64,000 nucleotides of DNA, taken from contig CBDESU010000001.1 in assembly GCA_965242695.1 (NCBI GenBank), positions 1,472,001 through 1,536,000 on the forward strand. The letters are read 5' to 3'. Numbering within the stretch: position 1 is the stretch's first letter; the number at the start of each line of letters is the position of its first letter. The DNA comes from Cenarchaeum sp. Its GTDB lineage: Archaea > Thermoproteota > Nitrososphaeria > Nitrososphaerales > Nitrosopumilaceae. Positions 986 to 34,844 of the stretch are shown here, piece by piece. The position numbers and the translations under genes were made by a program. The notes beneath the pieces are model-generated. The model was not told the origin of the DNA and searched no databases. It was given only the letters and a program-made list of their open reading frames with translations.

Positions 986-2062
986 ATGATGGGGGGGGGG
1001 GCGGATCCTGAGGGCACCATGGGCTTTGACGCCATCCGCGGGGTCCAGGCCAAGCGCGAGTTCTACACCATCATGTGCACGTTCGCGACCATCACAAAGC
1101 ACTTCGAGTTCGACAACGACCCCCGCATAGCCCCCGAGCAGAGGGCCCAGCGCAAGCTGCGCGAGTCGCGCGTGCCCGACATTGCAAGCTACATCCTAGA
1201 GAACCGCGACACGTACGTCTTTTCGTCGATTACCGTCTCGGTCGGCGGCCGCGTAAAGTTCATCCCGAGCCCCGGCCAGGGGTCCGACGCGCGCCTCGGC
1301 AAGCTGTACATACCGCTCGACGCGCCGATCCTCATAAACGACGGCCAGCACAGGTGCGCCGCCATCAGGGCCGCGTTCGAGAAGGATCCGACGCTAGAGG
1401 TCGAGCGGGTCTCGGTCGTCGTCTTCGAGGACAGGGGCCTCAAGCGCAGCCAGCAGATGTTCGCCGACCTCAACAAGCACGCCGTAAAGCCGACGCGCTC
1501 GCTCGGGCTCCTGTACGACCACAGGGACACGTACGCGCGGTTCATCGTGACGATGATCAAGGACATCGAGGCGTTCGCCGGCCGGATAGAGATGGAGCGG
1601 ACCAACATATCGCACCGCTCCAAGAACCTGTTCACGCTCAACGGGGTCGCCGATGCGACGCGCTACCTTCTCAGGATGAGGGCAAAGACAAAGTCGATCG
1701 CGTCCGAGAAGCAAAAGCTCGCCGTAGAGTTCTGGAACAGGGCGGCCGGGAACATACCCGAGTGGAGCCTGCTCATGGAGGGGAGGATCACGACGGCCGA
1801 GATGAGAAAGGGGTACGTCCACGCCCACACGAACATGCTCAACGCTCTGGGGATTGCGGGCCACGTCATTACGAGGAGGGACGACTGGCGCGACGTGCTG
1901 AAGGGGCTGCAAAAGGTGGACTGGCGCAAGGACAGCCCCGTGTGGCGCGACAAGATCGTAATGGACGGGCGCATGCTAAAGAACCGCCTCGGCATAAAGC
2001 GCGCGGCCAACGCGCTGCTCGCCGAGCTCGGCCTAGACGAGAGGGTCGAGGAGGCGGTGTGA
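986..2062 (+). CDS. dndB: DNA sulfur modification protein DndB (copy 1)
   Basis: DGQHR motif, RAQRxLxxxR, QQMFADLNKHAVKP; first gene of dnd operon; start 986/989 or 1019; TTTAT box at ~956. Confidence 0.92.
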   Translation: MMGGGADPEGTMGFDAIRGVQAKREFYTIMCTFATITKHFEFDNDPRIAPEQRAQRKLRESRVPDIASYILENRDTYVFSSITVSVGGRVKFIPSPGQGSDARLGKLYIPLDAPILINDGQHRCAAIRAAFEKDPTLEVERVSVVVFEDRGLKRSQQMFADLNKHAVKPTRSLGLLYDHRDTYARFIVTMIKDIEAFAGRIEMERTNISHRSKNLFTLNGVADATRYLLRMRAKTKSIASEKQKLAVEFWNRAAGNIPEWSLLMEGRITTAEMRKGYVHAHTNMLNALGIAGHVITRRDDWRDVLKGLQKVDWRKDSPVWRDKIVMDGRMLKNRLGIKRAANALLAELGLDERVEEAV

Positions 2063-2063
2063 C

Positions 2064-3602
2064 ATGGGGGCCGCGTCGGTCTTTGACTCGCGCACGCTCG
2101 GGGACGTGTACGAGGAGATCCGCGGGGTGTACGCGGGCGACCCCAGGCCGTGGATACTCGGGTTCAGCGGCGGCAAGGACTCTACGTGCATGGTGCAGCT
2201 CGTGTGGAACGCCCTGTCGGCCCTGCCCCCCGAGAAGCTGCTCAAGCGGCTGCACGTCATATCGTCGGACACGCGCGTCGAGTCGCCGACGGTGGCCGAG
2301 CAGATCAGGCGCTCGCATGCGATGATCGATGCGGCGGCGGCCAGGTCGGGCCTGCCCATATCGACGAGTATAGTCAGGCCGCCGACCGAGGAGACGTTCT
2401 GGGTGTGCCTGCTCGGGAGGGGGTACCCTGCGCCGACGAACCTGTTCCGGTGGTGCACCGACAGGCTAAAGGTGTCCAATGCGGACAGGTTCGTGCGCGA
2501 GCAGGTCTCTAGGTACGGCGAGGCCGTCGCCGTGCTCGGCACGCGCAAGGACGAGAGCGGCTCGAGGGGGCAGCTGATGAACCTGTACGAGATCGAGGGC
2601 AGCCGCCTGTCCAGGCACTCGAAGCTGGCGCAGACGTACGTGTACACGCCGCTGCGCGACTTTACGTCGAGGGACGTGTGGAACTATCTGCTGCAGCACA
2701 AGAACCCGTGGGGGGCGAGCAACCGCGACCTGCTGGCCATGTACAAGGACGCCAACGCGGCCGAGTGCCCGCTGGTCGTCGATACGAGCACGCCCTCGTG
2801 CGGGGGGACGAGGTTCGGGTGCTGGACGTGCACCGTCGTCGAGAGCGACTCGTCCCTGAGGAACACCGTGGACAACGGGGCCGAGTGGATGGAGCCGCTG
2901 CTCGAGCTGCGCGAGGAGCTAAAGGCCACGCAGGATCCGGCGCGGCGGCGCGAGGTGAGGTCGCTCAAGCGGAGGCTGGGGCAGATGAAGCTGATCGACG
3001 ATGCGCGCAGGGATACGTTCGAGAAAAAGATGCGCGAGTCCGAAGAGGCAAGGGCGGCGGCATCGGCATCGGAGGGAGGCGGCAGGGATGCGTCCGGTGC
3101 GGGCGACGACCCGTACTCCAAGCTGGTGCCGGGCCCGTACACGTTCGAGTTCTGCGTGCACTTTCTAGAGAGGCTTCTGGCGGCGCAGGAGAGGGTCAGG
3201 CGGGACGGGCCCGACCCCGGCATCGTCCTGATAGGCGACGACGAGGTGCACGAGATACAGAGGATATGGAGGGCAGAGCGCGGCGACTGGCGCGACACCG
3301 CGTACCGGACGTACGAGAGGGCGACGGGGAGGGCCCTGGCCGCGCCGGGCGAGGACATGGGCGGGCCCGGGGCGGCCGAGCAGGAAGTGTTGGAGGAGGT
3401 CTGCGCCGGCAGGGGCGTGCCGGCGCTGCTCGTCTCAAAGCTGCTCAACGCCGAGCACGAGTCGCGGGGGATGGCGCGGCGATCGGGCGTGTACCGGAGG
3501 ATCAACGCGGTCCTCTCCGAGGAGTGGCGCGAGGACATGGGCGAGGTCATCGGCGACCTTGAGCGCAAAAAGGCCGCAAGGGAGGAGCTTGGAGGGGTTT
3601 GA
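2064..3602 (+). CDS. dndC: DNA phosphorothioation sulfurtransferase DndC (copy 1)
   Basis: PAPS-reductase PP-loop PWILGFSGGKDS, RWCTDRLK, ECPLVVDTSTPSCGGTRFGCWTC. Confidence 0.95.
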   Translation: MGAASVFDSRTLGDVYEEIRGVYAGDPRPWILGFSGGKDSTCMVQLVWNALSALPPEKLLKRLHVISSDTRVESPTVAEQIRRSHAMIDAAAARSGLPISTSIVRPPTEETFWVCLLGRGYPAPTNLFRWCTDRLKVSNADRFVREQVSRYGEAVAVLGTRKDESGSRGQLMNLYEIEGSRLSRHSKLAQTYVYTPLRDFTSRDVWNYLLQHKNPWGASNRDLLAMYKDANAAECPLVVDTSTPSCGGTRFGCWTCTVVESDSSLRNTVDNGAEWMEPLLELREELKATQDPARRREVRSLKRRLGQMKLIDDARRDTFEKKMRESEEARAAASASEGGGRDASGAGDDPYSKLVPGPYTFEFCVHFLERLLAAQERVRRDGPDPGIVLIGDDEVHEIQRIWRAERGDWRDTAYRTYERATGRALAAPGEDMGGPGAAEQEVLEEVCAGRGVPALLVSKLLNAEHESRGMARRSGVYRRINAVLSEEWREDMGEVIGDLERKKAAREELGGV

Positions 3603-5671
3603 TGCTGACCGGGATCGTCCTGACGGACTATGGGCTGTACCGCGGGCGCAACGAGATCGACCTGTCGTGCGCGGCCGACAGGCCGGTCGTGCTCGTCGGC
3701 GGGCTCAACGGGGCCGGAAAAACGACGCTGTTCGAGGCCGTCAGGCTGTGCCTGTACGGCGGCGCGGCGCTGGTCGGGAGGGGGGCGCGGCGGGGAGGCA
3801 GGAAGGCGTACGAGGAGTTTCTGGCGCGCAGGGTGCACAGGCCGACGGGAGAAGGCATGAGGGAGGAGGATCGGCGCGCATCCGTGGCGGTTACATTCGG
3901 GTTCTTCCATGGAGGGAAGGAGTCCGAGTACAGGGTCGAGAGGTCTTGGTCGTCGGGTGCCGGCGGCGGCGGGGGAGTCGACGAGCGGCTAGAGGTCGGC
4001 AGGCGCAGCCCCGGCGATACAGAGTTTGCGCCGCTCGATGCCGTCGAGAGGCCCCACTGGCAGCAGTTCATCGAGGGGATCATACCGCGCGGGATAATGC
4101 AGCTGTTCTTTTTTGACGGGGAAAAGGTAGCAAGGATGGCCGGCGGGGACGAGGGCGCCGGAGCGGCCGAGGGCGAGGCCGTGCGCGAGGCGTTCGGGGC
4201 CCTGCTCGGCCTGGACACGGTCGAGCAGCTCCAGGCCGACCTAGAGGTCAACCTGGCGCGCAACCTGACGGGGGGCGGGGCGGCGCTGCGCGCCGAGTAC
4301 GAGAGGGTCAGGGAGGAGAGGGACGAGAACGACGCCGGCTCGGCGCGCCTGCGCGAGAGGCTGGCCCAAAAGGCTACCGAGCTGGATGCCGTGCGAGCCC
4401 AGACCGAGGCCGCCGAGGCTAGGATAGCCAGGGTGGGAGGCGGCTTTGCGGCAAGGCGGGAAGAGGCAAAGGCCGAGCTTGCAGCGGCGCGGTCCGAGCA
4501 CGAGGCCTCCTGCCAGCGCCTGCGCGAGATGTGCTCCGGCGCCCTCCCGTTCGCGCTCGTGCCGGCCAGGCTGGCGCGGATGCGCGACTCCATACTGGAG
4601 GATCAAAAGGCGCAGCGCCGGCGGGCCGGGCAGGCCGAGCTGAGTGCGAGCATCGGCAGGATGCTATCCAGGCTCGACGCGGACGGGTTTCGGACAGGCG
4701 CGGCCCTTGACGGCGAGGGGGCAAAGAGGGCCGCGATGCTGGTCGCAAGGGCCGCGGCCGGCGAGTCTGGCGGCGCGGACGTGCCCGAGCCGCCCATGGG
4801 CCTGTCCGAGTCGCAGGTGGCCGTACTGGTGCGGGCGATCGACGAGGCCGACAGGGCCGCCGAGGGCCTGGCCGAGCATGCCGATGCGGCGGCCGCATCT
4901 GCCGAGAGGATCGCCGGCATCGAGTCGTCGCTGGCAAAGGCGCCGCGCGACGACGAGATCGGCCCGCTCGTCTCCGAGGTCGGCAGGCTTCGGGCCGAGG
5001 AGGGCAGGCTCAAGGCCGAGTCGGACCACATAGAGGGGAGGATATCGAGCAGCGCGGCGCTGCGGCAGCACCTCAACGCAAAGCTGCGCGAGACGATGTC
5101 CCGCATATACAAGGCCGAGGGATCCCAGAGGAGGGCCGAGCTTACCAGGCGCGTGCAGGGCGTCCTGGAAGAGTACGCCGGCAGGCTCAGGGCAAGGAAG
5201 GTGCGCGAGCTAGAGAGGCACCTGCTAGAGTCGGCCCGCACGCTGCTGCACAAGGGCGACCTGATCGGCGGCGCAAGCGTGGACCCCGAGACGTTTCGGG
5301 TGTCGCTGTCCAGGCCCGGCGGCTCCGAGCTGCGCAGGGACGAGCTGTCCGAGGGCGAGAAGCAGATGCTGGCGACGGCCCTGCTGTGGGCGCTGGCCAG
5401 GGCGTCGGGCAGGGCCCTGCCGTTCATGATCGACACGCCGCTCGCAAGGCTCGACAGGAGCCACCGCGACAGCATGGTCGACAGGTTCCTGCCTGCCGCC
5501 TCGCACCAGGTCATCGTCCTCTCGACGGACGAGGAGATCGACCAGAGGCGGCGCGCCAGGCTCGAGCCGCACCTGAGCCGGACGTACCTTGTGGAGTACG
5601 GGGGCGGCGCGACGAGGTGCCGCGAGGGGTACTTTGAGCCGGAGGAGGCTGGAAGGGTTGCCGCGGTTTAG
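3599..5671 (+). CDS. dndD: DNA sulfur modification ATPase DndD (copy 1)
   Basis: SMC-like: GGLNGAGKTT, LFFFDGEK, coiled coil, LSEGEKQ, IDTPLARLD, ASHQVIVLSTDEEI. Confidence 0.95.
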   Translation: MMLTGIVLTDYGLYRGRNEIDLSCAADRPVVLVGGLNGAGKTTLFEAVRLCLYGGAALVGRGARRGGRKAYEEFLARRVHRPTGEGMREEDRRASVAVTFGFFHGGKESEYRVERSWSSGAGGGGGVDERLEVGRRSPGDTEFAPLDAVERPHWQQFIEGIIPRGIMQLFFFDGEKVARMAGGDEGAGAAEGEAVREAFGALLGLDTVEQLQADLEVNLARNLTGGGAALRAEYERVREERDENDAGSARLRERLAQKATELDAVRAQTEAAEARIARVGGGFAARREEAKAELAAARSEHEASCQRLREMCSGALPFALVPARLARMRDSILEDQKAQRRRAGQAELSASIGRMLSRLDADGFRTGAALDGEGAKRAAMLVARAAAGESGGADVPEPPMGLSESQVAVLVRAIDEADRAAEGLAEHADAAAASAERIAGIESSLAKAPRDDEIGPLVSEVGRLRAEEGRLKAESDHIEGRISSSAALRQHLNAKLRETMSRIYKAEGSQRRAELTRRVQGVLEEYAGRLRARKVRELERHLLESARTLLHKGDLIGGASVDPETFRVSLSRPGGSELRRDELSEGEKQMLATALLWALARASGRALPFMIDTPLARLDRSHRDSMVDRFLPAASHQVIVLSTDEEIDQRRRARLEPHLSRTYLVEYGGGATRCREGYFEPEEAGRVAAV

Positions 5672-6044
5672 CAGGCTGCGGATGAGCCTGCGCTCGCAGA
5701 ACCTCATGGCGCAGCTAAAGGCGCGCACCGGCATGACGCCGAACGTGACCGGCAGGCTCGCCATATGCATCTCGCTCGGCGACCCGTCGCCGCCAAACCC
5801 CGACGAGTTCGACGAGAGGGGCTCCGAGATCTACCCGTCGGCGATGTTCGGCGAGCACGAGGAGATGTTCATGGCGCTCATGCTCCAGCGGCTAGAGGAG
5901 GACGGCCTCGACCCCGACGTATACCTCAACCGCATGGTCAGGGCCCACTTCAACAGGGGGACGATCGCGCTGTTCGCAAGGGTGCACCACATAGCCGACA
6001 TCGGCAGGGTCGTGGCCGAGGAGCGGGAGGCGCAGGGGTATTGA
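5658..6044 (+). CDS. dndE: DNA sulfur modification protein DndE (copy 1)
   Basis: LKARTGMTPNVxxRLAICISL...RAHFNRG; TTG start overlapping dndD end. Confidence 0.9.
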   Translation: MPRFSRLRMSLRSQNLMAQLKARTGMTPNVTGRLAICISLGDPSPPNPDEFDERGSEIYPSAMFGEHEEMFMALMLQRLEEDGLDPDVYLNRMVRAHFNRGTIALFARVHHIADIGRVVAEEREAQGY

Positions 6045-7264
6045 CGGCGCAGGGGCGGGCGGCTGCCCCGAAGGAGGGAAGCGGCGATCGGCCGGTGTAC
6101 CTCGACAGCCACGCCACGACGCGGCCCGACCCGCTCGTAGTGGAGGCTATGATGCCGTACCTGACCGAGCGCTTTGGAAACGCGTCAAGTACGGACCATA
6201 CGTACGGGCGCGACGCCTCGGAGGCCGTGGAAGAGGCCCGCCGGCAGGTGGCTACGCTCGTCAACGCAAGGCCCAACGAGATCGTATTCACGTCGGGCGC
6301 GACCGAGTCGGACAACATGGCCATCGTGGGAGCCATGGAAAGGTACAGGGACAGGGGCGACCACATGGTAACCTGCGAGACCGAGCACAGGGCTGTCCTC
6401 GACACGGCGCGGCACATGGAGAAAAAGGGCAGGCGCGTAACATACCTACCCGTCGATGAGTTCGGGATCGTAGAGCCCGGCGCCGTGCGCGATGCCATCG
6501 GCGACAGGACCATACTAGTCTCTATCATGGCGGCAAACAATGAGATCGGGACCATACCCGACATAGGGGCCATCGGCCGCGCAACGCGCGAGGCAGGCGT
6601 GCTGTTCCACACGGATGCTGCGCAGGCTGCCGGCCACATCCCGATCGATGTGCAGTCCATGAACATCGACCTCATGTCGCTCTCGGCCCACAAGATGCAC
6701 GGCCCAAAGGGGGCAGGGGCGCTGTACGTCAGGGGCACGTCCCCAAGGGTCGTACTCGAGCCCATACTGCACGGCGGCGGGCAGGAGCGCGGCCTGCGGT
6801 CGGGGACGCTTAACGTGCCGGCCATAGTCGGGTTCGGCAGGGCTACCGAGCTTGCTCGGGCCCGCATGCGGGACGATGCGGGGAGGCTTGCCAAATGGTC
6901 GTCAATGATGCGAAAGGATTTCGAGGCGGTCGGCGGCAGGATCATGGGCCACCCCGACCGGCGGCTTGCTCACAACGTCTGCGTGCGGTTCCCAGGCATC
7001 GACGGCAAGGCGATAATCAACACCGTGTCCGAATCGCTGGCGATATCGGCAGGCTCGGCCTGCACCGCGCAGGCGGTCGAGCCATCACACGTCCTGCTTG
7101 CCACGGGGTTGTCAGAAGAGGAGGCGCACTCGGCCGTGCGCATAGGGCTCGACAGGTTCAACACGGATGCCGACGTCGACCTGCTCGTCTCGACAGCGTC
7201 TGCCGCCGTACATCAGCTGCTAGGCATGGGGGGAGGAGGGCGCGAGGAGTACAAAGGGGTGTAG
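6041..7264 (+). CDS. dndA: cysteine desulfurase DndA/IscS (copy 1)
   Basis: YLDSHATT, FTSGATES, SAHKMHGPKG (PLP Lys), SAGSACT (catalytic Cys); TTG start overlaps dndE stop. Confidence 0.92.
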   Translation: MTAQGRAAAPKEGSGDRPVYLDSHATTRPDPLVVEAMMPYLTERFGNASSTDHTYGRDASEAVEEARRQVATLVNARPNEIVFTSGATESDNMAIVGAMERYRDRGDHMVTCETEHRAVLDTARHMEKKGRRVTYLPVDEFGIVEPGAVRDAIGDRTILVSIMAANNEIGTIPDIGAIGRATREAGVLFHTDAAQAAGHIPIDVQSMNIDLMSLSAHKMHGPKGAGALYVRGTSPRVVLEPILHGGGQERGLRSGTLNVPAIVGFGRATELARARMRDDAGRLAKWSSMMRKDFEAVGGRIMGHPDRRLAHNVCVRFPGIDGKAIINTVSESLAISAGSACTAQAVEPSHVLLATGLSEEEAHSAVRIGLDRFNTDADVDLLVSTASAAVHQLLGMGGGGREEYKGV

Positions 7265-7270
7265 CCGGCA

Positions 7271-8152
7271 GTGTCCAAGGACTTTGTGATGATCGTCAGC
7301 GGACGCGATGCGGAGAGGTTCAGGCGGTTCTGCACGGGCGAAGACGGCGCAGCGGCGCTCCCACTGGGCGCAGAGGGCGATGCCGTCAACCTTTGGGCGG
7401 TGTCAGCACCGTCCGGTGGCAACGTGTGGGACAAGGTTGAAAGTGGAGACAGGGTGTTCTTCGCCGAGTTCGGGTCGCGGTTTGTCGCATGCGGCACCGT
7501 GTCTGGCACAGCGCAAGACGGATCGACGGCGGTTCGTACGTGGGGCGACACGCCGCGCATGCGCATGCTCGATCGATTCATACTGTTTTCCAAAGTGCGC
7601 GAAGTGTCCGAGCCGTTCGGCAGGACATGCAGGAAGGCTGGCATCGAGCCGTCCGAGTTCACCGCCCTGTACGAAGCGGCGGGGCACATCGACTCATTGC
7701 CGCGCGGCCCCGGCTCGCAGGCCTACGAGATGCCCATACCGCGCGGCATGATCGCAATTCCGGCCGACGGGGACGGTCCACCCGAAAAGGTAGCAGGGCC
7801 CGTGACCCGGTTTATCAGGGATGCGGAAAAGGCTCAGAAGATCAAGCGCCTGTACCTCGACAGGTGCCAGGTCTGCGGCATTGCGATAGAGATGCCGGGC
7901 GGCATGAAGTATAGCGAGGTCCACCACCTCCGTCCCCTCAAGGAGGGCGGGGATGACAACTATGGCAACATGATCGTCCTGTGCCCCAACCACCACGCAA
8001 GGTTTGACTGCGGGGCCGTAGGAATATCCAAGGACGGCTCGACGGTCATCGACTGGCGAGGCAGAAAGGTAGGGAGAGTCACCATTGCAGGTGGCCACTC
8101 GATCGACCGGAAGAACATCACATATCACGCGGAGGCGATGCGGCGGGTATGA
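7271..8152 (+). CDS. HNH endonuclease with N-terminal PUA/EVE-like domain
   Basis: C-terminal CQVC..EVHHLRPL..GGDDNYGNMIVLCPNHH; N-terminal WAV...WDKVESGDRVFF resembles EVE/PUA fold. Confidence 0.8.
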   Translation: MSKDFVMIVSGRDAERFRRFCTGEDGAAALPLGAEGDAVNLWAVSAPSGGNVWDKVESGDRVFFAEFGSRFVACGTVSGTAQDGSTAVRTWGDTPRMRMLDRFILFSKVREVSEPFGRTCRKAGIEPSEFTALYEAAGHIDSLPRGPGSQAYEMPIPRGMIAIPADGDGPPEKVAGPVTRFIRDAEKAQKIKRLYLDRCQVCGIAIEMPGGMKYSEVHHLRPLKEGGDDNYGNMIVLCPNHHARFDCGAVGISKDGSTVIDWRGRKVGRVTIAGGHSIDRKNITYHAEAMRRV

Positions 8153-10209: not shown

Positions 10210-10562
10210 GATCGACGCGGCGCAGGACATCAGCCAGAACGAGAATGAGAGAGGCATGCAGAGTCACCTACTCCGATTCACCGGTGCGCGATGGGACGGG
10301 TTGCCCCGTCGTTGGTGATCAGCCACTTACCTAGCGCAACCAGTCGATCAAACCCCGCCATTGCTGACAGCGACATGGGCGATGAATGACGTCGTTTGAT
10401 CACTGTCCAGCGTGGTCATATTCATTGTTATAACATGCGTCCTTTTCAAGTAGAACGTCCCCCACTGAATGATCTATCCTCTGCCATGATCGGGATTTAA
10501 GATCAATATTCCGAATGGAGTCACATGATCACGCTCAGGTGCACGTTCAACAAACCCCAATG

Positions 10563-10573
10563 TTTTTAATATA
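10563..10573 (+). promoter_or_regulatory. TATA box for pbeBCD-like operon 1
   Basis: tttttaatata ~25 bp before GTG at 10593. Confidence 0.6.
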
Positions 10574-10592
10574 CGCCGTATCGCGCCCGGGC

Positions 10593-10799
10593 GTGACGAT
10601 AAACCCGCTGATTGTCAAAGGGATCGACGCTCTGGATGCGCCCGACAGTGTAAAGCGGGTGTTGCACGAGATAATTGAAGTTGAAAACAGTATCACGGTA
10701 GGGAGCGATCGACACGCTCCAAGCACGGCGATAAAGAGGATACTTGAGGAGTGTGCAGGGAACGATGAGGTGGTGAAATTTTGTGGTAGGCATGGTTGA
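10593..10799 (+). CDS. PbeB-like small protein (copy 1)
   Basis: 68-aa helical ORF overlapping start of downstream ATPase; position matches pbeB. Confidence 0.6.
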   Translation: MTINPLIVKGIDALDAPDSVKRVLHEIIEVENSITVGSDRHAPSTAIKRILEECAGNDEVVKFCGRHG

Positions 10800-13352: not shown

Positions 13353-13371
13353 TCAGAGGCGGTGCGGCCGC

Positions 13372-16379: not shown

Positions 16380-16481
16380 GCTGGAAACGGCCAAGTGGCA
16401 TATATAAAGAACATGGCAGTCTGTTCATGGCGCCTTCACTCCGCAGAGCGCGCGTGCAGAGTGCCGCAGAGCGCGCGTCCA

Positions 16482-22700: not shown

Positions 22701-23161
22701 GGATCGCCGCCGCCCTTGCCGCCCCCCGGCGCCCCGTCTCCCGCCCCCGGCGCAACATCGGCGTCCTCCCCGCCCGCCGCCGCCGCCGCCGCATCCTCGC
22801 AGCCGAGCAGCCTCGCAAAGTCGCCGAGACCCCGCACGCGCGGGAACAGCATCCCGGCGCCCCTGTTCAGGTGCGCGCGCATCATGCGGTCGGCGTACAT
22901 TGCAAGGTCAAGCCCGTCCTCGTCGAGGCGGCACCGCAGGGCCGCCGCGTACGCGGCCTCGTGCTCGCCGAACAGGATATGCGGGAGCAGCTCCATGCCC
23001 TTTTCGTCGTACAGGTCGGGGTTTGGCACGGTCTCGTCTGCGAGCGACATGCAGATGCCGAACCTGGCAAGGACGTTTATCGGCAGGCCGGTGCGCGACT
23101 TTAGCTGGCCTAGCTGGCTCTGCGAACGCATCGACATGCGGACGCGGTCTAGCCGGTACAG
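22697..23161 (-). CDS. dndE: DndE (copy 2); start uncertain (CTG at 23161 aligns with DndE1 start)
   Basis: LKSRTGLPINVLARFGICMSL..MRAHLNRG. Confidence 0.85.
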   Translation of the reverse strand: MYRLDRVRMSMRSQSQLGQLKSRTGLPINVLARFGICMSLADETVPNPDLYDEKGMELLPHILFGEHEAAYAAALRCRLDEDGLDLAMYADRMMRAHLNRGAGMLFPRVRGLGDFARLLGCEDAAAAAAGGEDADVAPGAGDGAPGGGKGGGDP

Positions 23162-23162
23162 C

Positions 23163-25345: not shown

Positions 25346-25346
25346 C

Positions 25347-26756: not shown

Positions 26757-27781
26757 CAGGCGCCGGCCTCGCAGTGCTCTACAATAATCTTGGCGGCGTT
26801 GTTCATGCCCGCCTTGGTCTTTGTCATCTTGCCTCGTATGATGACCTTGCCGTCCCAGACAGGGTTCGTCCTAGTCCAGTCGATCGTCCGCAGGGCCGGC
26901 AGCATTGCGAGCCACCGGTCGGGGTGCCGCTTGCGGAGCTGGCCGCCCGCTAGCCCGATCGCCTCTAGCATGTTCGTGTTGGCGTGGACGTACTCCTTGC
27001 GCAGCTCGTACGCCGAGACCTTGCCCTCCTCGAGCAGGACCCACTCGGGCACGTTCGACGAGACGGCCTTCCAGAACTCTAGGGCGTCGCGCCTGTCCTG
27101 GTCGGTCAGCCCCTTGGACTTGCCGAGCAGGTTGGCCGTGGCCATGCGCAGGCCGCTTAGCGTAAAAAACTTGACGGAGCGGTTTGAAAGGGTCGTCTTT
27201 TCCATCTCTATGCGGCCCCGAAACACGTCGACCTTGCCGGCCATGTCGACGACGAACTGCGAGAGCGGGTTGCGGCGGTCGTACAGTATGCTGAGGGACT
27301 TTGTCGGCTTGACGGCGTTCTTGTTCAGGTCGGCGAACATCTGCTGGCTCTTCTCTAGGCCGGGGTCTTGGAAGAAGACGACCGAGATCTTGTCGCGGCC
27401 TAGCTGCGGCGACTCCCTGACGGCGTCCTTGATGCCGGCCACGCGGTGCTGTCCGTCGTTGATGAGGATGGCCGCGTCCTGGGACATGCGGATGGTCCCG
27501 AGGTTGGCGCCGGCCGAGACGGGCTCGAAGTCGATCTTGCCGTCGACCGAGACCGTCAGCGACGAGAAGGTGTAGTCCTTTTCGTTCTGGAGGATGTAGT
27601 CGCGGATGCGCGGCACCCTGGACTTGCGCAGGACTCGCTGGGCCCGCTGGAGGGGCGGTATGTCGGCGTCCTGGAAGGTGAAGAGCTTGGCGACGGCCTT
27701 TAGCGTGCACATGGCGATGTAGAAGTCCGAGCCGGCCTGTGAGCCCCTTATGGCCTCAAAGGAGTGTGTGTTTGTGGGCAT
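26756..27781 (-). CDS. dndB: DndB (copy 2)
   Basis: DGQHR, QQMFADLNKNAVKP. Confidence 0.92.
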   Translation of the reverse strand: MPTNTHSFEAIRGSQAGSDFYIAMCTLKAVAKLFTFQDADIPPLQRAQRVLRKSRVPRIRDYILQNEKDYTFSSLTVSVDGKIDFEPVSAGANLGTIRMSQDAAILINDGQHRVAGIKDAVRESPQLGRDKISVVFFQDPGLEKSQQMFADLNKNAVKPTKSLSILYDRRNPLSQFVVDMAGKVDVFRGRIEMEKTTLSNRSVKFFTLSGLRMATANLLGKSKGLTDQDRRDALEFWKAVSSNVPEWVLLEEGKVSAYELRKEYVHANTNMLEAIGLAGGQLRKRHPDRWLAMLPALRTIDWTRTNPVWDGKVIIRGKMTKTKAGMNNAAKIIVEHCEAGA

Positions 27782-27797
27782 TCTTGGCGAACGGCCA

Positions 27798-27863
27798 TAT
27801 GGGAAGTATATTATGCTTGTGCCGGACGCCGATACGATAAAGATTATTTATGGGAAGTATATT
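27798..27863. promoter_or_regulatory. 15-bp direct repeat overlapping dndB2 promoter
   Basis: tatgggaagtatatt at 27798-27812 and 27849-27863. Confidence 0.7.
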
Positions 27864-28047
27864 TTTAGTGCAAACAAGCCATTTCGGCGTCGATTTCGCC
27901 AGCCGCGGCCAGATACAGGCGTCAAAAAGTCGTGCCGACGCCCCCTCAGAGGACTAATCGCGCAAATCAAGGGTGGTGGAGATACCCCATGCGTGCCGCT
28001 GACCACAACCGAGTTAACCTTATGAACCGTCAAGATCCAGGTGGCGC

Positions 28048-28239
28048 GTGCCCAGTGCGAGGGAGGAAATTGCAAGGATTCTCGCAGAGGTCGAAAGTGA
28101 CAGTGCGCTGCCCCGCGGCATGCTGAAGAGGGTATACGACATGGAGGCAGGCGTCGTTCACCTGCGATCGCGCGAGCGCATCTACAGCGACCTCAGGGAG
28201 ATGATAGCCGACGCGGCGGCTGAAAGCAAGGAGGCGTAG
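28048..28239 (+). CDS. PbeB-like small protein (copy 2)
   Basis: 63-aa ORF 3 bp before ATPase, followed by GGAGG; resembles 10593 ORF (KRVxxxE). Confidence 0.65.
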   Translation: MPSAREEIARILAEVESDSALPRGMLKRVYDMEAGVVHLRSRERIYSDLREMIADAAAESKEA

Positions 28240-28242
28240 CGC

Positions 28243-30180
28243 ATGCTGTTCAAGAGGATCGAGATGTACAACTTTGGTAGGTATGCGGGAAAAAACACCT
28301 TCGACACGACAGTGACGCGCGAGCGGAACGTTATACTCGTGAGGGCTCCCAACGACAGGGGGAAGACTACGCTGTTCAAGGCCATCAAGTTCGCCCTCTA
28401 CGGTGACAAGGACGCTCCGGCGAGCAGCTGGATCAACTTCCAGGCAGCGGCCGAGGGCGACGGGGAGATGTACGTTGAGATAGTGTTCGACGATGGAGGC
28501 GAAGAGTACCGGTTGAGGCGATCTGCGGCGTTCAAGAAGACGCCCCGAGGCGAGGAGATAAACACGAAAGGGATCCCCAAGTTCGAGCTGTTCAGCGGGG
28601 ACGGCGAGGTGGCGACTGGAGCCTCCGAGAGTGAAGGCAGGGACAAAGTCGATGCGATGCTCCCAAGGGATGCTAGCCAGTTCTTCTTCTTTGACGGCGA
28701 GGAGATTCAAGGGTACATAAAAAACCAAAGCTCGCACGTGAAGCTTGCGATAGAGAAGATCCTTGGCATAAAGGAGATGTTTAATGCTGCGGATGATCTG
28801 TTTCACATCAAGGGCGGCCTGGACGCAGAGTACACCCGAATCGCAAAGAGCCACACCAAAAGCCAAAGGGACAAGGGAAAGCTCGAAGGGGTAGAGCGGG
28901 ATCTGTCCGAGATCCAAGACAGCATAGACGCGAACGAGACCCTACTGAAAGGCGCTGCAAGTAGGCATAGAGAGCTCAAGGAGGCCCTTGCTCAGTACGA
29001 GTCGATAAAAAGCGTCGTGGAGGAGAGGGACCGGGCCGAGGCAGAGTGCGCCAGGATCGAGGGGGGGATCAAGGAGGTCGACAAGGCGCTTGCCAAGCAG
29101 TGGGGAGACCTAGGCATAAGCATGCTTGTCGGACTCCTTTACATCATTGACAGTGGGGGGGAGGCGGGTGCAATGGCCGACGAGTGTGAGTCAAAGATCG
29201 TACAGCGCATGGTCGAAGGGCATGCAAAGACCTGCATCTGTGGTAGGCCCATAGACGACAAGTCGTACAGGGTGCTAGAGTCAAGGGCACGCCGCGTCGA
29301 GCCACCAGTTGCCCTGTTGCTCAAGCGCTTTGTAGAGAGGATGCTCATTGACCTTCGGCCCGGCCAGCGCGCAACCGACCTGAGGCAATCCGTCGAAAAG
29401 CGATCCTCGTATGTAAAGGACATGGACGCGCAAAAGAGTGCCATACAGAGGTGCATGTCAGAGATCAAAAAGGCGCCAGTCGAGGGCGTGGCAAGGCTAG
29501 AGAGCGAGTACGAAGAGTCGGCCAGGGACATGGGCAAGTACGAGCGCGACATCCAGGCACTGTTCATTGCAAAGCGGAAAAAAGAGGCAGACAGAGAGAA
29601 GATCGAGTGGAAGATAGAGGCAAGCACCGACGATGTGCAGCTCCAACAGGCCAAGAACAGAAAGACCGTGTGCGACGCTGTTATAGGCGGAATCGAGCAG
29701 GCCATCGAACTGTTTTATCAAAATCGGAAGCCCGAGCTGGAGGGTCACGTGTCAAGGATATTCACGCGGCTGACGAACAACCCCGGCCTCTACAAGGGGA
29801 TCAAGATCGATCGGGAGTTCAACTTAGTCGTCGTCCGTCACGACGGCACCGAGCTTCCGACAGACACGTACAGTCCGAGCCCGGGGGCTTCGCAGACGGT
29901 GGCGACCGCGATGATCGGCGGGATGAACAGGTTTGCGACAAGAGATGCTCCCATCGTAATAGACACGCCACTCGGAAGGCTCGACGACATCCACAGGGCC
30001 AACGTCATGAGGTATTACTCCGAAATGGGCAGGCAGGTCATCATACTTTATCAACCCAGTGAGATCGGCGGGGAGGACATGGAAGGCATCAGGGATCAGT
30101 TGGCCTCTGAGTGGGACATAGAATTGCTAACGGACAAGCCAGACTTGTCGCGGATCACAAGAAAGGTGACGTATATATGA
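28243..30180 (+). CDS. PbeC-like SMC-type ATPase with CxC motif (copy 2)
   Basis: APNDRGKTT, FFFFDGEE, CICGRP, PSPGASQ, IDTPLGRLD. Confidence 0.85.
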   Translation: MLFKRIEMYNFGRYAGKNTFDTTVTRERNVILVRAPNDRGKTTLFKAIKFALYGDKDAPASSWINFQAAAEGDGEMYVEIVFDDGGEEYRLRRSAAFKKTPRGEEINTKGIPKFELFSGDGEVATGASESEGRDKVDAMLPRDASQFFFFDGEEIQGYIKNQSSHVKLAIEKILGIKEMFNAADDLFHIKGGLDAEYTRIAKSHTKSQRDKGKLEGVERDLSEIQDSIDANETLLKGAASRHRELKEALAQYESIKSVVEERDRAEAECARIEGGIKEVDKALAKQWGDLGISMLVGLLYIIDSGGEAGAMADECESKIVQRMVEGHAKTCICGRPIDDKSYRVLESRARRVEPPVALLLKRFVERMLIDLRPGQRATDLRQSVEKRSSYVKDMDAQKSAIQRCMSEIKKAPVEGVARLESEYEESARDMGKYERDIQALFIAKRKKEADREKIEWKIEASTDDVQLQQAKNRKTVCDAVIGGIEQAIELFYQNRKPELEGHVSRIFTRLTNNPGLYKGIKIDREFNLVVVRHDGTELPTDTYSPSPGASQTVATAMIGGMNRFATRDAPIVIDTPLGRLDDIHRANVMRYYSEMGRQVIILYQPSEIGGEDMEGIRDQLASEWDIELLTDKPDLSRITRKVTYI

Positions 30181-30647
30181 CCGAGATAAGGCGCATAACA
30201 ACCGAAAAGTGGGAGATACTCACATCACACAACGACGACTATGAAAAGCTTGTCACAAGGGGAAAACTCTTCCCTACAAAGCACCACCTCTTTGCAGCAG
30301 GGCTAGTGTACGGATTGCTACACGACAAGCGGTACGACAAAAAGCCCACGGTTGCGATTACAAAACTTTTTTCGATCGGCGACAAAACGACAACTGGTGT
30401 CATTGACATGGTATTCTGGGTTTTGAACAACGAAAAAGATGATAAAAAAGTGTGGGCAGAAATGCTCCACATTGCGGACGGAGGAGTCATGGCACTGAGC
30501 GAGATGTATGATTCAGGAGGAGGCAACATTGACATATCGCGCCTGTTGGACGACGCCAAAGCGTTGTGGCCAAGACGGGCCAATGGCCTTTACAACATAG
30601 GCACGGCGACAAGCAAGCAGGGCAGGACGGCAACACTGCCAGAATGA
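30177..30647 (+). CDS. PbeD-like protein (copy 2)
   Basis: LFAAGLVYG..MLHIADGGV; ATGA overlap with ATPase stop. Confidence 0.65.
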   Translation: MTEIRRITTEKWEILTSHNDDYEKLVTRGKLFPTKHHLFAAGLVYGLLHDKRYDKKPTVAITKLFSIGDKTTTGVIDMVFWVLNNEKDDKKVWAEMLHIADGGVMALSEMYDSGGGNIDISRLLDDAKALWPRRANGLYNIGTATSKQGRTATLPE

Positions 30648-31073
30648 CGATCTATTTTGGGAGCCTCGACAGAGGCCGTCCAGGAGCGCACGAGTACACA
30701 AGGAAACTAAAGATCATGGGGGCATTTTGAGCGGGCGCATGCAACCAATCCCGACACGGCCTGCGACATCACCACGACATCGAAAAGTGATGTCCATATC
30801 AGCGTGTGTAATAGTCAAGAGGTGTGTTTGAGACATATCAAACGCGGATGCTAGGATTACACATGATAGAAGTCTATTTTTAATGCAAACACTAAAAGAG
30901 TAAATTAAACCTATACACCTAGAAATATACCGACAATTGCTTACGGCTGAAAAGCAAACAAACATGAGTGACTACTACGATATTTGCCAAGGAAGTCAAT
31001 TTTAAACGCTGTACAGTATTTGGGCAGAATCACTACATATAATAACCCACGCAGGGACGGGCCAGACGTGACG

Positions 31074-33317
31074 ATGAAGGGGAAGTTTGATGAAACGCAT
31101 GCTGAGCGCATAAGTGCCCTTTTAACCTCACAAGACATCCCGATGCAGTCGTTTGTCGTACCAAGGTTTCAACGAAACTACGCGTGGAGGCATGACAGAG
31201 AAGCAGGGAAGTTGTGGGAGGATGTATATGACAACTACGTAGAGTACAAAGAAAATATTCCCGAGAACATTATCGATGGGCAGTACATGCTCGGTCCGCT
31301 GGTACTGTTAGAAGACAAGAAAGAAGAATTTGAATGGCAAGTGATTGATGGACAACAGCGTCTAGCCACATTAACCACACTTTTTTGTGTAATAAGAGAC
31401 ATATTCTTTGTCCTAAGAGAGCATTTGACCAACGATGAGGGTTACAAGTTATCCAAATCACTCATTGAAAAAGAGAGGTTCGATGAAGATGATATCGAGT
31501 CAAAGCTAGAGCCAAAGCTACAACTAAATCATATCGATAGGGGCTTCTTTTTCGAAATGATTCAAAAAGAAGGCGATCCTGACGCTAAACTTTCTGCGTG
31601 GGTCAGCAAGGCAAAAGGCCAAAAAAAGACGATCCCAACATCCCATAAACTACTTATGAAATGCTATGAAGAATTCTACGATGAGGTTGAAAGGGCCTTG
31701 CTGACAGGGTTTGTTGATCGAAATGAAGCTGAAAGTAGGTTAAAAGAAAAAGAAGAACAAATTGAAAAAGATTTGACAAGAGACATGGCAGCAAACCCTG
31801 AAAAATACGGTTTTGAGGGTGGCTTTTTTTTGAGGCATTGGGATGGAGAAAAATTTGTGCAAGATGGCAAAATAGATGAAAATGAGCGTGCAGATTATGA
31901 GCGAATAAAGGCGATGCCAAGTGGCAGAAGGCACCAAGACGCTAGTGAGTACGTAAGATACATTGTTAGTCAAAAAGAAAAAAAATTCAGAAAGCGACTC
32001 AGTGTAGAGACCAAAACCCGAAGATCGAGAATGTTAAGAGATGATGGTCCCAAAAACATAGGGATGCTAACAAAATTTCTGAAACATGTGATAAGACAAA
32101 ATTTTGTGGTGTCTGTAAAAGTAAGAAACGAGAGCGATGCATTTATGATTTTTGAGACATTAAATGCAAGAAACAAACCGCTATCAAAATCAGAGCTTAT
32201 AAAAAATATGTGCTTTAAGGCAGTAAAAAATGAAAAAGAGATAATCGATCTGGACAATCAATGGATGGATATTTTCAGCGAGTTGGAAAATGGCGATCGG
32301 TTTATTCGCGAGTCACTTCGTTCACGGTATTTTGATGATCATGAGAATCCTAACCCCAAACGAAAGAAAAAAGTCAAGGCAACAACGTCGAACCTCTTCG
32401 TCATTATCAAGAGTATTGTTAATGACGACGATCGAAAGGCAAAAGATTACATTAATTGGTTGGAAACAGATTCAAAGTTTGTAAAATTTATGGACGACCC
32501 CTTCAGTTATACCGATGACGAAGTAATTAAATCGAATTTGGTTTCGTTGAAACGACTGGATGCGGTTCATATCAGGATACCGCTTCTTACTGCCTACAGA
32601 AGACTAAACTCGGGGGGAAAACGATATGGGTTTTCTGAGAAAGATTTTGAGGAGTTTTCGAGTATGTTGATAAAGTTTCACTTTCGAAACAGAACCATTG
32701 GTAAGTTACATCCAAGTAAAATGGAAGACATCATGTTAGATGTGGCAAAAAAAATAGAGAGTGGAGAAAGTTTAGCAGACGTCACAAGTCTACTGCGTCA
32801 AAAAGACATAGAGGATGACGAATTTGAGAGTGGGTTTCGCAAATTCAAACCAGACGAATCAGAAGTGATAAAGTATATCCTGTTGGAAATTGAGAAATAT
32901 TTGCGTAACAGTCAAGATGTATTGCAACTTAAAACCGATGCTACCGTTGAACATATACTACCCAAGGACCCAGGAGGAAATTGGAATAAGAGTGAATTTT
33001 TCAACGAGGAGAGCGACGATGTTGAACATAATTTTGAGTCATATCATAACCGTATCGGAAACATGACGCTGTTAACAAAAGGACTCAATTCAAAAATTCA
33101 AAACAAGTCTTTTTGTGTAAAAAAAACTGAGGCGTACAAAAACGAAAAGACGTTACATATAACATTAGAAACTGTTTTAAAAATGGCAAAATGTGCCGAA
33201 GAATTGGGCCGTGGTGCTAAGCCAGAATTTAACGATGTAAAAGAATGGACAGCGAGAATCATTGATGAGAGAAGCGAGTGCTTTTCAAAACTGGCAAAAA
33301 TGATATGGAGTGTGTAA
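31074..33317 (+). CDS. DUF262-DUF1524 protein (GmrSD / SspE-like nuclease)
   Basis: VPRFQRNYAW, VIDGQQRL, FETLNARNKPLS, C-terminal VEHILPK..RIGNMTLL..LNSKIQNKSF; strongly AT-rich. Confidence 0.9.
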   Translation: MKGKFDETHAERISALLTSQDIPMQSFVVPRFQRNYAWRHDREAGKLWEDVYDNYVEYKENIPENIIDGQYMLGPLVLLEDKKEEFEWQVIDGQQRLATLTTLFCVIRDIFFVLREHLTNDEGYKLSKSLIEKERFDEDDIESKLEPKLQLNHIDRGFFFEMIQKEGDPDAKLSAWVSKAKGQKKTIPTSHKLLMKCYEEFYDEVERALLTGFVDRNEAESRLKEKEEQIEKDLTRDMAANPEKYGFEGGFFLRHWDGEKFVQDGKIDENERADYERIKAMPSGRRHQDASEYVRYIVSQKEKKFRKRLSVETKTRRSRMLRDDGPKNIGMLTKFLKHVIRQNFVVSVKVRNESDAFMIFETLNARNKPLSKSELIKNMCFKAVKNEKEIIDLDNQWMDIFSELENGDRFIRESLRSRYFDDHENPNPKRKKKVKATTSNLFVIIKSIVNDDDRKAKDYINWLETDSKFVKFMDDPFSYTDDEVIKSNLVSLKRLDAVHIRIPLLTAYRRLNSGGKRYGFSEKDFEEFSSMLIKFHFRNRTIGKLHPSKMEDIMLDVAKKIESGESLADVTSLLRQKDIEDDEFESGFRKFKPDESEVIKYILLEIEKYLRNSQDVLQLKTDATVEHILPKDPGGNWNKSEFFNEESDDVEHNFESYHNRIGNMTLLTKGLNSKIQNKSFCVKKTEAYKNEKTLHITLETVLKMAKCAEELGRGAKPEFNDVKEWTARIIDERSECFSKLAKMIWSV

Positions 33318-33536
33318 ATTGTTAGAGTTTCAACGCACCTCACATATTTTAGATTAAAAAACAATATCCAACGTAGTTATCAACAAACGATCACCCATAT
33401 TTGGTATGAAGCGTTAAAATTTCAGAACTTTCGTCGCCAAAAAACAGGTCGTTCCCCCTCTACTGCACCCAACTCGCCACGCATGTGTTTACCGTGCCCA
33501 TGCTCGCATCACGCCCCTATAGAATGTTGCCAACGT

Positions 33537-33582
33537 GCCATGACCAGACGAACAGCGTGGCCATGACCAGACGAACAGCGTG
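33537..33582. repeat. 23-bp tandem duplication
   Basis: gccatgaccagacgaacagcgtg x2. Confidence 0.9.
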
Positions 33583-33770
33583 GCCACAACAAAACGCTCT
33601 CGACGACCCCGAAATTCACAGCCCCCCCCCCAAGACGTGAACTGCCCACATGAGCACATCAAATGCTTAATACACTAACGAAGCCGGCCCGCCGTGTGGC
33701 TCCACAGCACGGATCATGCGGATGGATGCAAAGCGGCGTACCCGCAGGCGGAGGGGGTACGAAGCCTACC

Positions 33771-34844
33771 ATGCTTCAGATAGAGGACATAGACGAGGAT
33801 AAGAGCAGTTGTACAACACCGAAAAAATACAACGTGATGTACATGCCCTCAGACTATACTCTCGGCGAGCTCTACGACATGTGGAAAAAGAACGCCATCA
33901 CCGTACCCGAATTCCAGCGAGGTTATGTGTGGACACCCGCACAGGCATCACGGCTTATAGAGTCATTCTGGATGGATCTCCCCGTGCCGCCCGTGTTCCT
34001 AATGATGGACAAGGAAGAGAATGCACTAGTGATAGACGGCATGCAGCGGCTCCTGACCATCTTCTACTTTTTTGACGGGTGGTACGGGAAGAGGGGGCAT
34101 CAAGAGTCTAGGCAGGAGTTCAAGATCGTCGGCATAAGCAAGGACAACGAGATCTATGGAAAGAGGTTTGATGATCTGCCAGAATACATACAGAAAGAGC
34201 TAAAGAACCAGCTTCTTCGCGCCATACTTATTCGTCAGAACCCGCCCGTCACCGGTAGCGCCAACGGCACCGCCATCTACCACATATTCGAACGCCTGAA
34301 CATGGGCGGCACCGCACTGTCTGAGCAGGAGATCAGAAACTGCATCTACACAGGCAAGCTCAACGATCTTCTTCACGATGTCAACAGTGACAAGGACTGG
34401 AGAAAGATTATGGGCAAGGCTTATCCAGATTCCCGCATGAACGACCTACAGCTTGCCCTTCGCTGCATAGCGCTTGTCCACTGTAGTGACAGGTACCGAA
34501 AGCCCATGAAGGACTTTTTGTCAGGGTTCATGCACGACATGCGCAACCCGACAGATGTCTTCATCCTGCAGGAAAAAGATCGCTTCGGCAACGTCTGCAG
34601 GGACATAGTCGACCACCTCGGCGAGCGCCCATTCCACAACTCGCGGGGGGCCCTCAAGTCCACACTCCTGGATGCCGTATTCGTGGCGTTCGCGCACAAT
34701 GATAGCCATGCCCCAATCGACATAAAAGAAAGGTTCGAAAGCTTGAAAAGAGGCCCCCTATTTGCATCGCATTCTGGCGCGTCCACTGACACATCAGCGG
34801 TCGGAGGACGCCTAGAAATCGCCCGCAAGGTGATGTTCGGGTGA
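33771..34844 (+). CDS. DUF262 (ParB-like/GmrS) domain protein
   Basis: VPEFQRGYVW, SRLIES..LPVP, IDGMQRL, IFERLNMGGTALSEQEIRN. Confidence 0.88.
   Translation: MLQIEDIDEDKSSCTTPKKYNVMYMPSDYTLGELYDMWKKNAITVPEFQRGYVWTPAQASRLIESFWMDLPVPPVFLMMDKEENALVIDGMQRLLTIFYFFDGWYGKRGHQESRQEFKIVGISKDNEIYGKRFDDLPEYIQKELKNQLLRAILIRQNPPVTGSANGTAIYHIFERLNMGGTALSEQEIRNCIYTGKLNDLLHDVNSDKDWRKIMGKAYPDSRMNDLQLALRCIALVHCSDRYRKPMKDFLSGFMHDMRNPTDVFILQEKDRFGNVCRDIVDHLGERPFHNSRGALKSTLLDAVFVAFAHNDSHAPIDIKERFESLKRGPLFASHSGASTDTSAVGGRLEIARKVMFG

Follow-up and report, generated by a model that had tools for sequence, protein, structure and literature searches.

DNA phosphorothioation (PT) underlies the archaeal antiviral system DndCDEA-PbeABCD, for which Xiong et al. 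(PMC6459918) report that Pbe requires host PT, that deletion of the writer brings no growth defect, that PT-marked virus escapes and that protection is under ten-fold without pbeA. In another described arrangement, duplicated DndBDE/DndDE clusters lie in opposite orientation, in 39 taxa with a CxC (i.e., Pbe) pair between them (Rakesh et al. 2024, PMC10853773). Three residues of a DndC loop are reported to set specificity, with TRS directing GAAC/GTTC, TQN or NQT directing GATC, and RxK/R directing GGCC (PMC12193691). Here we analyze a 64,000-nucleotide stretch of Cenarchaeum sp. DNA (the window; assembly GCA_965242695.1, contig CBDESU010000001.1, positions 1,472,001 to 1,536,000), which derives from a genome (G000) of 3.89 Mb in two contigs, with 67-68% GC, 96% completeness and 0.75% contamination, and which holds two Dnd writers amid Pbe and other effector genes (Table 1). 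We consider it likely, though well short of firm, that the window encodes two PT writers that probably mark different motifs, the second of them phase-variable, together with an exchangeable cargo of effectors.

The two dndBCDEA sets, recovered with PADLOC, NCBIfam and Pfam models, face in opposite directions (986-7264 on the forward strand and 21522-27781 on the reverse strand), and their core genes have E-values of 1e-30 to 1e-180, beyond chance. Copy 1 is a single operon with all five genes intact, its B, C and D products scoring above the NCBIfam cut-offs, E above the Pfam but below the TIGR cut-off, and A below that of TIGR. In copy 2, B, C, E and A are intact and dndD2 is split at a homopolymer tract, being in frame in a contig of sequencing run X1. 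The coordinates and inversion given by a first-pass annotation of this DNA thus stand, and its two full sets are, as assembled, one full set and one with a frameshifted dndD. Both copies keep the SGGKDS and CxxCT motifs of DndC and the pyridoxal phosphate and Cys motifs of DndA. As that annotation had noted, the copies differ throughout, with protein identities of 48% (DndB), 52% (DndC), 37-47% (DndD), 50% (DndE) and 60% (DndA). In quick trees, which were used for all DndC phylogeny, the DndC copies fall in separate, well-supported clades (54 rows), the outcome of a check that the annotation had proposed, and forcing them together is rejected at a cost of 138 log-likelihood units (approximately unbiased test, p-AU 1.4e-7; 24 of 55 rows used), which rules out a recent duplication.

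Both writers are under purifying selection: the ratio of nonsynonymous to synonymous change (dN/dS) against the congeneric genome G071, obtained by simple counting with dS compressed by GC at third codon positions, is 0.08-0.33 for copy 2 genes and 0.15-0.29 for copy 1 genes (e.g., 0.32 for dndD2 versus 0.29 for dndD1, and 0.19 for dndC2 versus 0.21 for dndC1). The same facing inverted pair is present in G071 and G052, two of the four other genomes of the genus, the remaining two being devoid of dndC. Given the separate clades, the purifying selection on both copies and the layout shared by three congeneric genomes, these are old paralogous writers that were distinct already before the genus diversified. 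A chimeric join between the clusters, a possibility raised in the first-pass annotation, is ruled out by this recurrence and by the contigs of run X1, which tile 17000-35300 with overlaps apart from a skipped repeat at 23200-23305 that is bridged by a run X7 contig. Contig depth in run X1 is about 19 over 17000-26010 and about 32 over 26636-35300, and is flat in run X7; this unevenness may be due to strain mixture or GC bias, between which contig depth gives no choice.

The DndC specificity loops carry the triads TNL in copy 1 and SNT in copy 2, and because these differ the writers probably mark different motifs, as the annotation had also supposed; SNT resembles NQT, so GATC is our guess for copy 2. 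The triads also differ in all 12 co-resident pairs of the eight multi-copy genomes of the family. The inverted copies could in principle form a shufflon, with recombination swapping the specificity loops or inverting the island in the manner of hsdS, and exact dndC1/dndC2 matches of 33 and 31 nt do flank the loop, with contigs breaking there in all four runs. Such a scheme is exceedingly improbable: the exact matches sit on invariant motifs and are not common to the G071 copies, the island showed no recombinase gene, and a four-taxon site count over the five genes of G000 and G071 gives 1170 orthologous sites against 44 shared within a genome (conversion-type) and 34 of the control pattern, a count that also rules out gene conversion or shuffling between the copies.

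The case for a switch centers on dndD2, which contains a homopolymer of at least nine nucleotides within its coding sequence and frameshifts at this run of 12 G, behind the Walker A motif. The run has 12 G in the window and in P0173 (Logan, ENA; 2 contigs), 13 in P0178, P0179 and the run X1 contig, and 14 in P0182, the lengths in the four P records being inferred from translations; at the same run G071 has 18 C and is out of frame, and in-frame DndD2 records vary in their number of Gly residues. The run length thus varies among near-identical assemblies, and close relatives, partly as judged from translations, differ in it with ON and OFF alleles both present. The DndD2 clade comprises 81 records (30 representatives and 51 further cluster members), of which 27 are full-length, 46 are C-terminal fragments starting just past the run, three are N-terminal pieces that leave the frame within it, and five are other fragments. 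Leaving out the last, 27 of 73 (37%) are full-length, which is compatible with one third (p 0.54). Walker A is kept in nine of 29 representatives of the clade versus 82 of 83 distant DndD representatives drawn from the same kinds of source (p 3e-14). A search for DNA-level tract alleles in the metagenome collection found none by pattern scan and only distant loci by alignment scan (best segments 25-43% identical), which served as controls. The out-of-frame G071 allele, the 27 of 73 full-length records and the wholeness of distant DndD lead us to prefer a dndD2 switch over assembly error, with reversible switching within a population as a prediction. The two writers probably lie together in many of the source assemblies too: 13 of the 22 dndB1-bearing contigs (>=16 kb) have exactly the same length as the contig of a DndD2 record.

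The dndD2 gene has a second peculiarity, an ACG at its initiator position (25343-25345) in both G000 and G071, where G052 has ATG. Thr occupies the Met position in all 12 records that reach so far, across clusters that are 71-95% identical, and its conservation fits conserved non-canonical initiation. Compared with G112, G043 likewise has ACG in place of ATG ahead of dndB, and non-canonical initiation in these symbionts is possible. The ACG start, the frameshift in dndD2, the absence of a pbeA2, an insertion sequence in the dndC2 of G071 and a pbeD remnant in a duplicated block could alternatively mark copy 2 as a decaying spare, with only writer 1 and a distant Ssp cluster mattering. We consider this quite improbable, as copy 2 has dN/dS values like those of copy 1, the Thr is kept throughout, and 27 full-length DndD2 alleles exist; tract aside, dndB2 to dndA2 show no other stop or frameshift here.

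Tracts are also found at the 5' ends of dndB genes. Of the 47 family dndB 5' ends for which the upstream sequence suffices (one was dropped as too short), 11 carry a run of 9-14 G/C no more than 100 nt from the conserved start. All 11 are among the 23 loci with a GC content of at least 42%, against 0.12 expected from local density; such runs are absent from the 43 distant metagenomic loci. They lie at varied distances from the start, on either strand and in two DndB clades, which makes at least three origins likely, and several of the genomes are closely related. Judged from the nearest upstream start, three tracts are in frame and eight out (G083 also has a farther in-frame GTG), and seven of the 11 have no in-frame start behind the run. 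In-frame database readings (P0301, P0339, P0336, P0332) exist for four tract types that are OFF in our genomes. At dndB1 itself the run is in frame here and a G12 in G071 is out of frame; a TATA-like TTTATC 24 nt before the tract is a putative promoter element. A switch at dndB is well supported for the family and weakly for G000, since an in-frame ATG 11 codons past the run could bypass it and the count of long versus short DndB1 records (17 versus 26 of 44) has an uninformative control. Loss of DndB in Salmonella raised dnd transcription 15-fold and PT 2-fold (PMC6435447), and a tract shift in dndB could instead lower dnd expression by polarity. By eye, repeated ATACTTCC(A) / ACATGC(T/G)TCCA motifs precede most family dndB genes (e.g., L068, L069, L076); the ATACTTCC repeats are a candidate archaeal DndB operator, a function suggested by their position.

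Poly-G loci of Campylobacter jejuni are phase-variable homopolymer tracts, and the genome-wide context of G000 has a comparable cast. There are 265 G/C runs of 7 nt, 46 of 8 and 29 of 9, followed by 53, 54, 47 and 30 of 10 to 13 nt, i.e., the spectrum has a second mode at 10-13. A hexamer model places 15 of the 227 runs of 9-15 nt in coding sequence with confidence, and ten of these 15 shift the frame versus 72 of 925 six-mers. A Pfam scan of 20 of the 50 coding or 5' run loci returned several methylase, restriction or helicase genes, along with a few surface-type or unrelated genes and some misclassified ones; a run is carried by ten of 43 methylase open reading frames (ORFs) versus 16 of 514 other long control ORFs (p 6e-6). 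The genome holds at least 43 DNA methylase ORFs, and those with runs include C1:292849 and C1:1860676, which are out of frame. MutS was not found in G000 with a search whose control query matched in 11 of 14 genomes, and a search for NucS gave one marginal match only. Such a run profile is that of the contingency loci of repair-poor host-associated bacteria (PMC12707154).

Several observations weigh against a switchable second writer with a motif of its own. The sole read-derived contig across the dndD2 run, that of run X1, is in frame, only contigs having been analyzed; contigs of runs X4, X6 and X7, three of the four, end at the run, so contig breaks may account for some database C-terminal fragments. 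Only six records (the window, G071, P0065, P0173, P0181 and P0182) show a frameshift directly, and kin in the record counts are non-independent. Two-thirds frameshifts are likewise expected from long-read homopolymer error. With 212 of the 227 runs not confidently in coding sequence, runs also arise without switching anything, and a cluster that has no Gly run shows the same division into long and short records as DndB1. The dndC2 of G071 is broken by a 1.6-kb insertion sequence (L035:9735-11352) that carries terminal inverted repeats and a transposase-like ORF of 443 aa. Finally, TNL and SNT are both absent from the published triads, and by a hand estimate about 92% of random DndC pairs also differ, which makes the 12 of 12 differing pairs weak evidence.

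These points would in part suit two constitutive writers, in which case the dndD2 frameshift and most split records would stem from homopolymer assembly error or broken contigs and the G runs would be neutral poly-Gly expansions in a GC-rich, repair-poor genome: the run X1 contig has an in-frame length, short-read contigs break at the run, overlapping G11 matches abound genome-wide (552 in G071, 464 in G052), and Gly-rich insertions are common in these proteins. We regard this as unlikely. Errors alter the length of a run, not its placement at dndB 5' ends or in methylases, where the observed counts far exceed the expected or control ones; the 12-G reading recurs in P0173, and P0182 reads as 14 G; and all four of the OFF dndB tract types mentioned above have in-frame readings.

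Behind writer 1 come an HNH gene, pbeA, pbeB/C/D and a gene we call X, and beyond writer 2 lie pbeB/C/D without pbeA, a DUF262-DUF1524 gene and a DUF262 gene; domain scans agree with the first-pass annotation on this inventory. The HNH protein matches TagI (Z 17.4), the McrB-N EVE/YTH domain (Z 11.4) and VcaM4I (Z 9.3) in structure, and NF045808 at 41 bits, against a cut-off of 180, over its HNH part only. Given a fold that combines an EVE/YTH reader with a TagI-like HNH domain, it probably reads modified bases rather than PT, and it is a candidate modification-dependent nuclease. An identity as a PT nuclease of the sulfur-binding domain (SBD)-HNH type is ruled out, as the N-terminal domain folds as EVE/YTH and not as a sulfur-binding winged helix-turn-helix (wHTH). 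In PbeA1, HxK and GSxN are replaced, so it departs from the combination of HKD nuclease and SF2 helicase that characterizes PbeA. Among 22 aligned PbeA N-termini, 11 are of this degenerate type, all with an EVE-HNH neighbor; two of other His-less types adjoin another HNH gene; and the nine with HxK and GSxN have no EVE-HNH gene within the stretch covered. Few independent lineages are represented in this comparison. This coincidence suggests that the nuclease role of PbeA1 has been outsourced to EVE-HNH.

The Pbe module of set 1 has the CxC ABC ATPase with a DndE-like partner and a small protein, pbeB1 being named from its position and homologues in four related loci and pbeD1 from a weak TIGR04062 match. 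X belongs to a family of 59 clusters with invariant D365 and K398 in its restriction-endonuclease-like domain; its model (predicted local distance difference test, pLDDT, 83) resembles AF1548 (Z 7.5) and wHTH domains (Z 8-9), the MspJI and KOW matches are weak, an atlas search gave SWIM leads scoring <0.9, and Foldseek returned no match at E 0.001 or better; the nuclease-like assignment is offered as a lead. The homologues of pbeB2C2D2 in G014 and G044 are preceded by HNH and pbeA, and no pbeA or remnant was found at set 2, whose pbeBCD has lost this front. The DUF262-DUF1524 protein scores 250 bits with the HEC-06, 188 with the Orf5 and 57 with the SspE models; its DGQQR motif and DUF1524 HNH are traits common to the whole GmrSD family. 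The SspE-type effector of the first-pass annotation is thereby ruled out, and the ssp cluster of the genome is ~100 kb off.

That cluster (L001:4330-17636; G000:C1:1608330-1621636) is a third PT writer, in which sspA-sspB-sspC-sspD are followed by pbeC, pbeD and pbeA. This amounts to an Ssp-Pbe pairing. SspD matches at 2e-109, and the names sspB and sspC follow from gene position and size. The sspC gene is broken into two ORFs, and an IS630-like element interrupts pbeA.

EVE-HNH with pbeABCD is a family-wide module, often followed by X (and Y), and lies beside at least three DndC clades. What lies between and beside the writers is different in G071, in G052 and in the X6 and X7 strains: G071 has IS630-like, ParB and HATPase genes between its writers, with another type of Pbe following copy 2, G052 has GmrSD, IS66 and Schlafen genes, and the DUF262-DUF1524 gene is missing at the same place in the run X7 contig. 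The effectors are therefore exchangeable cargo, against the earlier claim that each writer is wired to its own set. Hard wiring, with an SspE-type PT sensor serving set 2, would draw on the EVE-HNH-pbeABCD(-X) modules behind clade-1 writers in G144, G258, G049 and G037, on the SNT-clade writers of G014 and G044, which adjoin pbeB2C2D2-type modules and GmrSD genes, and on the DGQQR and EH motifs that the GmrSD protein has as in SspE. It is made very improbable by the occurrence of the same HNH-pbe-X module next to a third DndC clade (G014) and next to yet other clades (G057, G228, G194, G290 and G080), by G071, where copy 1 has no Pbe and copy 2 has an HKD-intact one, by strains X6 and X7, which differ right behind dndB2 or pbeD2, and by an SspE match far weaker than those to HEC-06 and Orf5.

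On the preferred reading, a switchable writer 2 amid exchangeable effectors, poly-G slippage at replication would put the DndD2 ATPase in frame in about one third of alleles; lineages or cells would differ in whether the second PT mark is ON or OFF, making writer 2 a contingency locus, and the dndB1 5' run may tune writer 1, an OFF repressor giving more PT. The cargo, namely Pbe with its CxC ATPase-DndE pair, EVE-HNH and GmrSD, would sense the PT or methyl state of the cell, EVE-HNH standing in for the lost HKD site of PbeA1. As Pbe reportedly needs host PT and is harmless without it, an OFF writer would carry no direct cost; with DndFGH, by contrast, the OFF state would be self-destructive (a dndFGH search gave no match, and its control query likewise none). 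As writer loss further brings no growth defect and PT-marked virus escapes, an ON/OFF writer would be both tolerable and useful. Virus from OFF cells would lack mark 2 and be stoppable by ON neighbors, a form of bet-hedging resembling that of phase-variable restriction-modification. More tentatively, and at slightly less than even chances, we posit a phase-variable multi-motif sulfur epigenome in sponge-symbiont ammonia-oxidizing archaea. Two Dnd writers with unreported motifs, joined by the Ssp writer elsewhere, would be switched by slippage in dndD or in the repressor gene dndB, a control that would have evolved several times in the family; a clonal population would be a mosaic of PT states that re-arms Pbe against viruses carrying host modification and could serve as a PT phasevarion.

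DNA matching the window is also present in sponge metagenomes and the named relatives of its proteins are from Cenarchaeum and Nitrosopumilus, which suggests that the source is a sponge-associated member of the Nitrosopumilaceae; Dnd genes have been reported from sponge symbionts of this type (PMC7848895, PMC6790972). Of 301 genomes of the family searched, 45 have dndC, and eight of these (G000, G071, G052, G014, G016, G044, G123 and G298) have two or three full dnd copies, with extra fragments in G256 and G218. None of 80 distant metagenomic loci, many of them short, has two copies, and viral contigs gave no relatives of dndC. In G065, a partial inverted second copy (L056:2480-4755), with dndA, dndE and pieces of dndD and dndB, lies upstream of its full cluster. 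Between the writers of the window, the pbeD-X-Y block is duplicated, with identities of 77% for X and 67% for Y at the protein level; the blocks are separated by a spacer (16394-17950) with a C21 run and an element of ~380 nt, of which the genome has many diverged copies. Exact direct repeats (38 and 36 nt, respectively), 72 nt apart, surround unique inserts at 16776-16885 and 23196-23303, the latter in the dndD2 tail and missing from the run X7 contig, P0061 and P0062. At 15-665, a 216-aa gene without a family match (or any match in the atlas search) recurs beside dnd clusters in G071, G052, G298, G014, G012 and G078 and is similar to part of an HNH protein in G014. Farther off, 51548-52357 encodes a Lys/Arg-rich protein with repeated KPGPKPGRK units and a histone-H1-like composition.

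Table 1. Features of the twin PT-writer island, in window coordinates.
Feature	Position	Strand	Evidence or remark
dndB1, repressor-type DGQHR protein, first gene of writer 1	986-2062	+	TIGR03233 372 bits, cut-off 328
G11 tract right after first ATG of dndB1	991-1001	+	in frame here
dndC1	2064-3602	+	TIGR03183 480 bits; loop triad T125-N126-L127
dndD1, intact	3599-5671	+	TIGR03185 441 bits
dndE1, start approximate	5658-6044	+	PF08870 68 bits, cut-off 25
dndA1, cysteine desulfurase	6041-7264	+	PADLOC DndA 3e-152; SAHKM and GSAC motifs
EVE/YTH (PUA) reader fused to TagI-like HNH nuclease	7271-8152	+	model pLDDT 78
pbeA1, with intact SF2 helicase motifs and a degenerate HKD nuclease motif	8149-10209	+	PADLOC PbeA 2e-180
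pbeB1-like small gene, pbeC1 (CxC ABC ATPase, CICG hook), pbeD1	10515-13352	+	PbeC 3e-86
pbeD-X-Y block	13175-16414, with duplicate 17945-21164		81% nt over 3242 columns
X1, uncharacterized family	13372-15468	+	tandem winged helices, restriction-endonuclease-like domain, KOW, SWIM zinc finger
Y1, zinc finger and HNH_repeat protein, convergent on X1	15465-16394	-	PF18780 4e-8
Diverged pbeD-X-Y duplicate	17945-21164		pbeD remnant, X2 (18143-20227 +), Y2 (20224-21144 -)
dndA2	21522-22700	-	PADLOC DndA 1e-144
dndE2, start approximate	22697-23161	-	PF08870 68 bits
dndD2, ACG at initiator position, tract-split in assembly	23163-25345	-	dN/dS 0.32-0.33 vs G071
G12 tract (C12 on forward strand) in dndD2, behind Walker A	25099-25110	-	candidate ON/OFF switch, OFF as assembled
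dndC2	25347-26756	-	TIGR03183 494 bits; loop triad S124-N125-T126
dndB2, no tract	26756-27781	-	TIGR03233 378 bits
Two ATACTTCC copies upstream of dndB2	27802-27860	-	candidate DndB operator
pbeB2-pbeC2-pbeD2 without pbeA	28048-30647	+	pbeC2 and pbeD2 match PADLOC
GmrSD-family DUF262-DUF1524 protein	30984-33317	+	HEC-06/Orf5-like; 39% GC
DUF262-only protein, 7 genome paralogues	33663-34844	+	C10 tract ~30 nt upstream (33622-33631)

The poly-G tracts, the pbeD-X-Y duplication and the HKD-less PbeA1 had been passed over in the first-pass annotation, which regarded the layout as undescribed. That view holds in part: opposite duplicated Dnd clusters with a CxC pair are already in Rakesh et al. (PMC10853773), there as DndBDE/DndDE and not as two full writers. 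The apparent gating by poly-G is more novel than the partly catalogued twin layout. A 2018 review (PMC6435447) likens partial, heterogeneous PT marks to phase variation and states that no such repeats were observed in dnd genes or promoters. The literature searched, with subscription papers outside its coverage, yielded no description of phase-variable dnd genes gated by simple sequence repeats (SSRs), and nothing matching the window on archaeal SSR phase variation or on multiple dnd copies; homopolymer control is known for bacterial DNA methylases and was not found there for sulfur marking. The loci supply concrete candidate ON/OFF alleles for PT heterogeneity, the co-resident DndC paralogues with the unlisted triads TNL, SNT and TSM are a natural same-cell test of the loop code, and the HKD-less PbeA beside EVE-HNH bears on the dispute whether Pbe cuts DNA. 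Split dnd genes in symbiont genomes should not be written off as pseudogenes or errors.

Set against the described systems, the window shares with the layout of Rakesh et al. 2024 the opposite orientation, the CxC/Pbe module between the copies and nucleases as mobile cargo. In that layout DndB is usually missing from one copy, and neither DndC nor DndA features in the cluster names, whereas here each copy comprises B, C, D, E and A and the two come from old separate clades; SSRs are not mentioned in sections 12, 14, 16 and 17 of that paper, whose supplement may list twin full clusters. With the archaeal system of Xiong et al. 2019 (PMC6459918) it has in common the dndCDEA order and the adjacent pbeABCD, and it differs in having two writers each with a dndB, an HKD-less PbeA1 with EVE-HNH, a second Pbe without pbeA, and poly-G tracts. 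The GmrSD protein resembles SspE (PMC9646914; PDB 6jiv) in its DUF262 DGQQR motif, DUF1524 HNH and similar length, yet matches it only at E 1e-5, is closer to HEC-06/Orf5 and is encoded away from the ssp cluster. EVE-HNH has the PUA-type reader fused to HNH of VcaM4I and TagI, here placed in a Pbe operon before an HKD-less PbeA. Phase-variable restriction-modification systems and phasevarions (PMC12707154, PMC6435447) likewise show 9-14 G/C runs within coding sequences, random frame, enrichment in DNA modification and no MutS; the candidate gated genes here are instead the ATPase of a PT writer and its repressor, in an archaeon.

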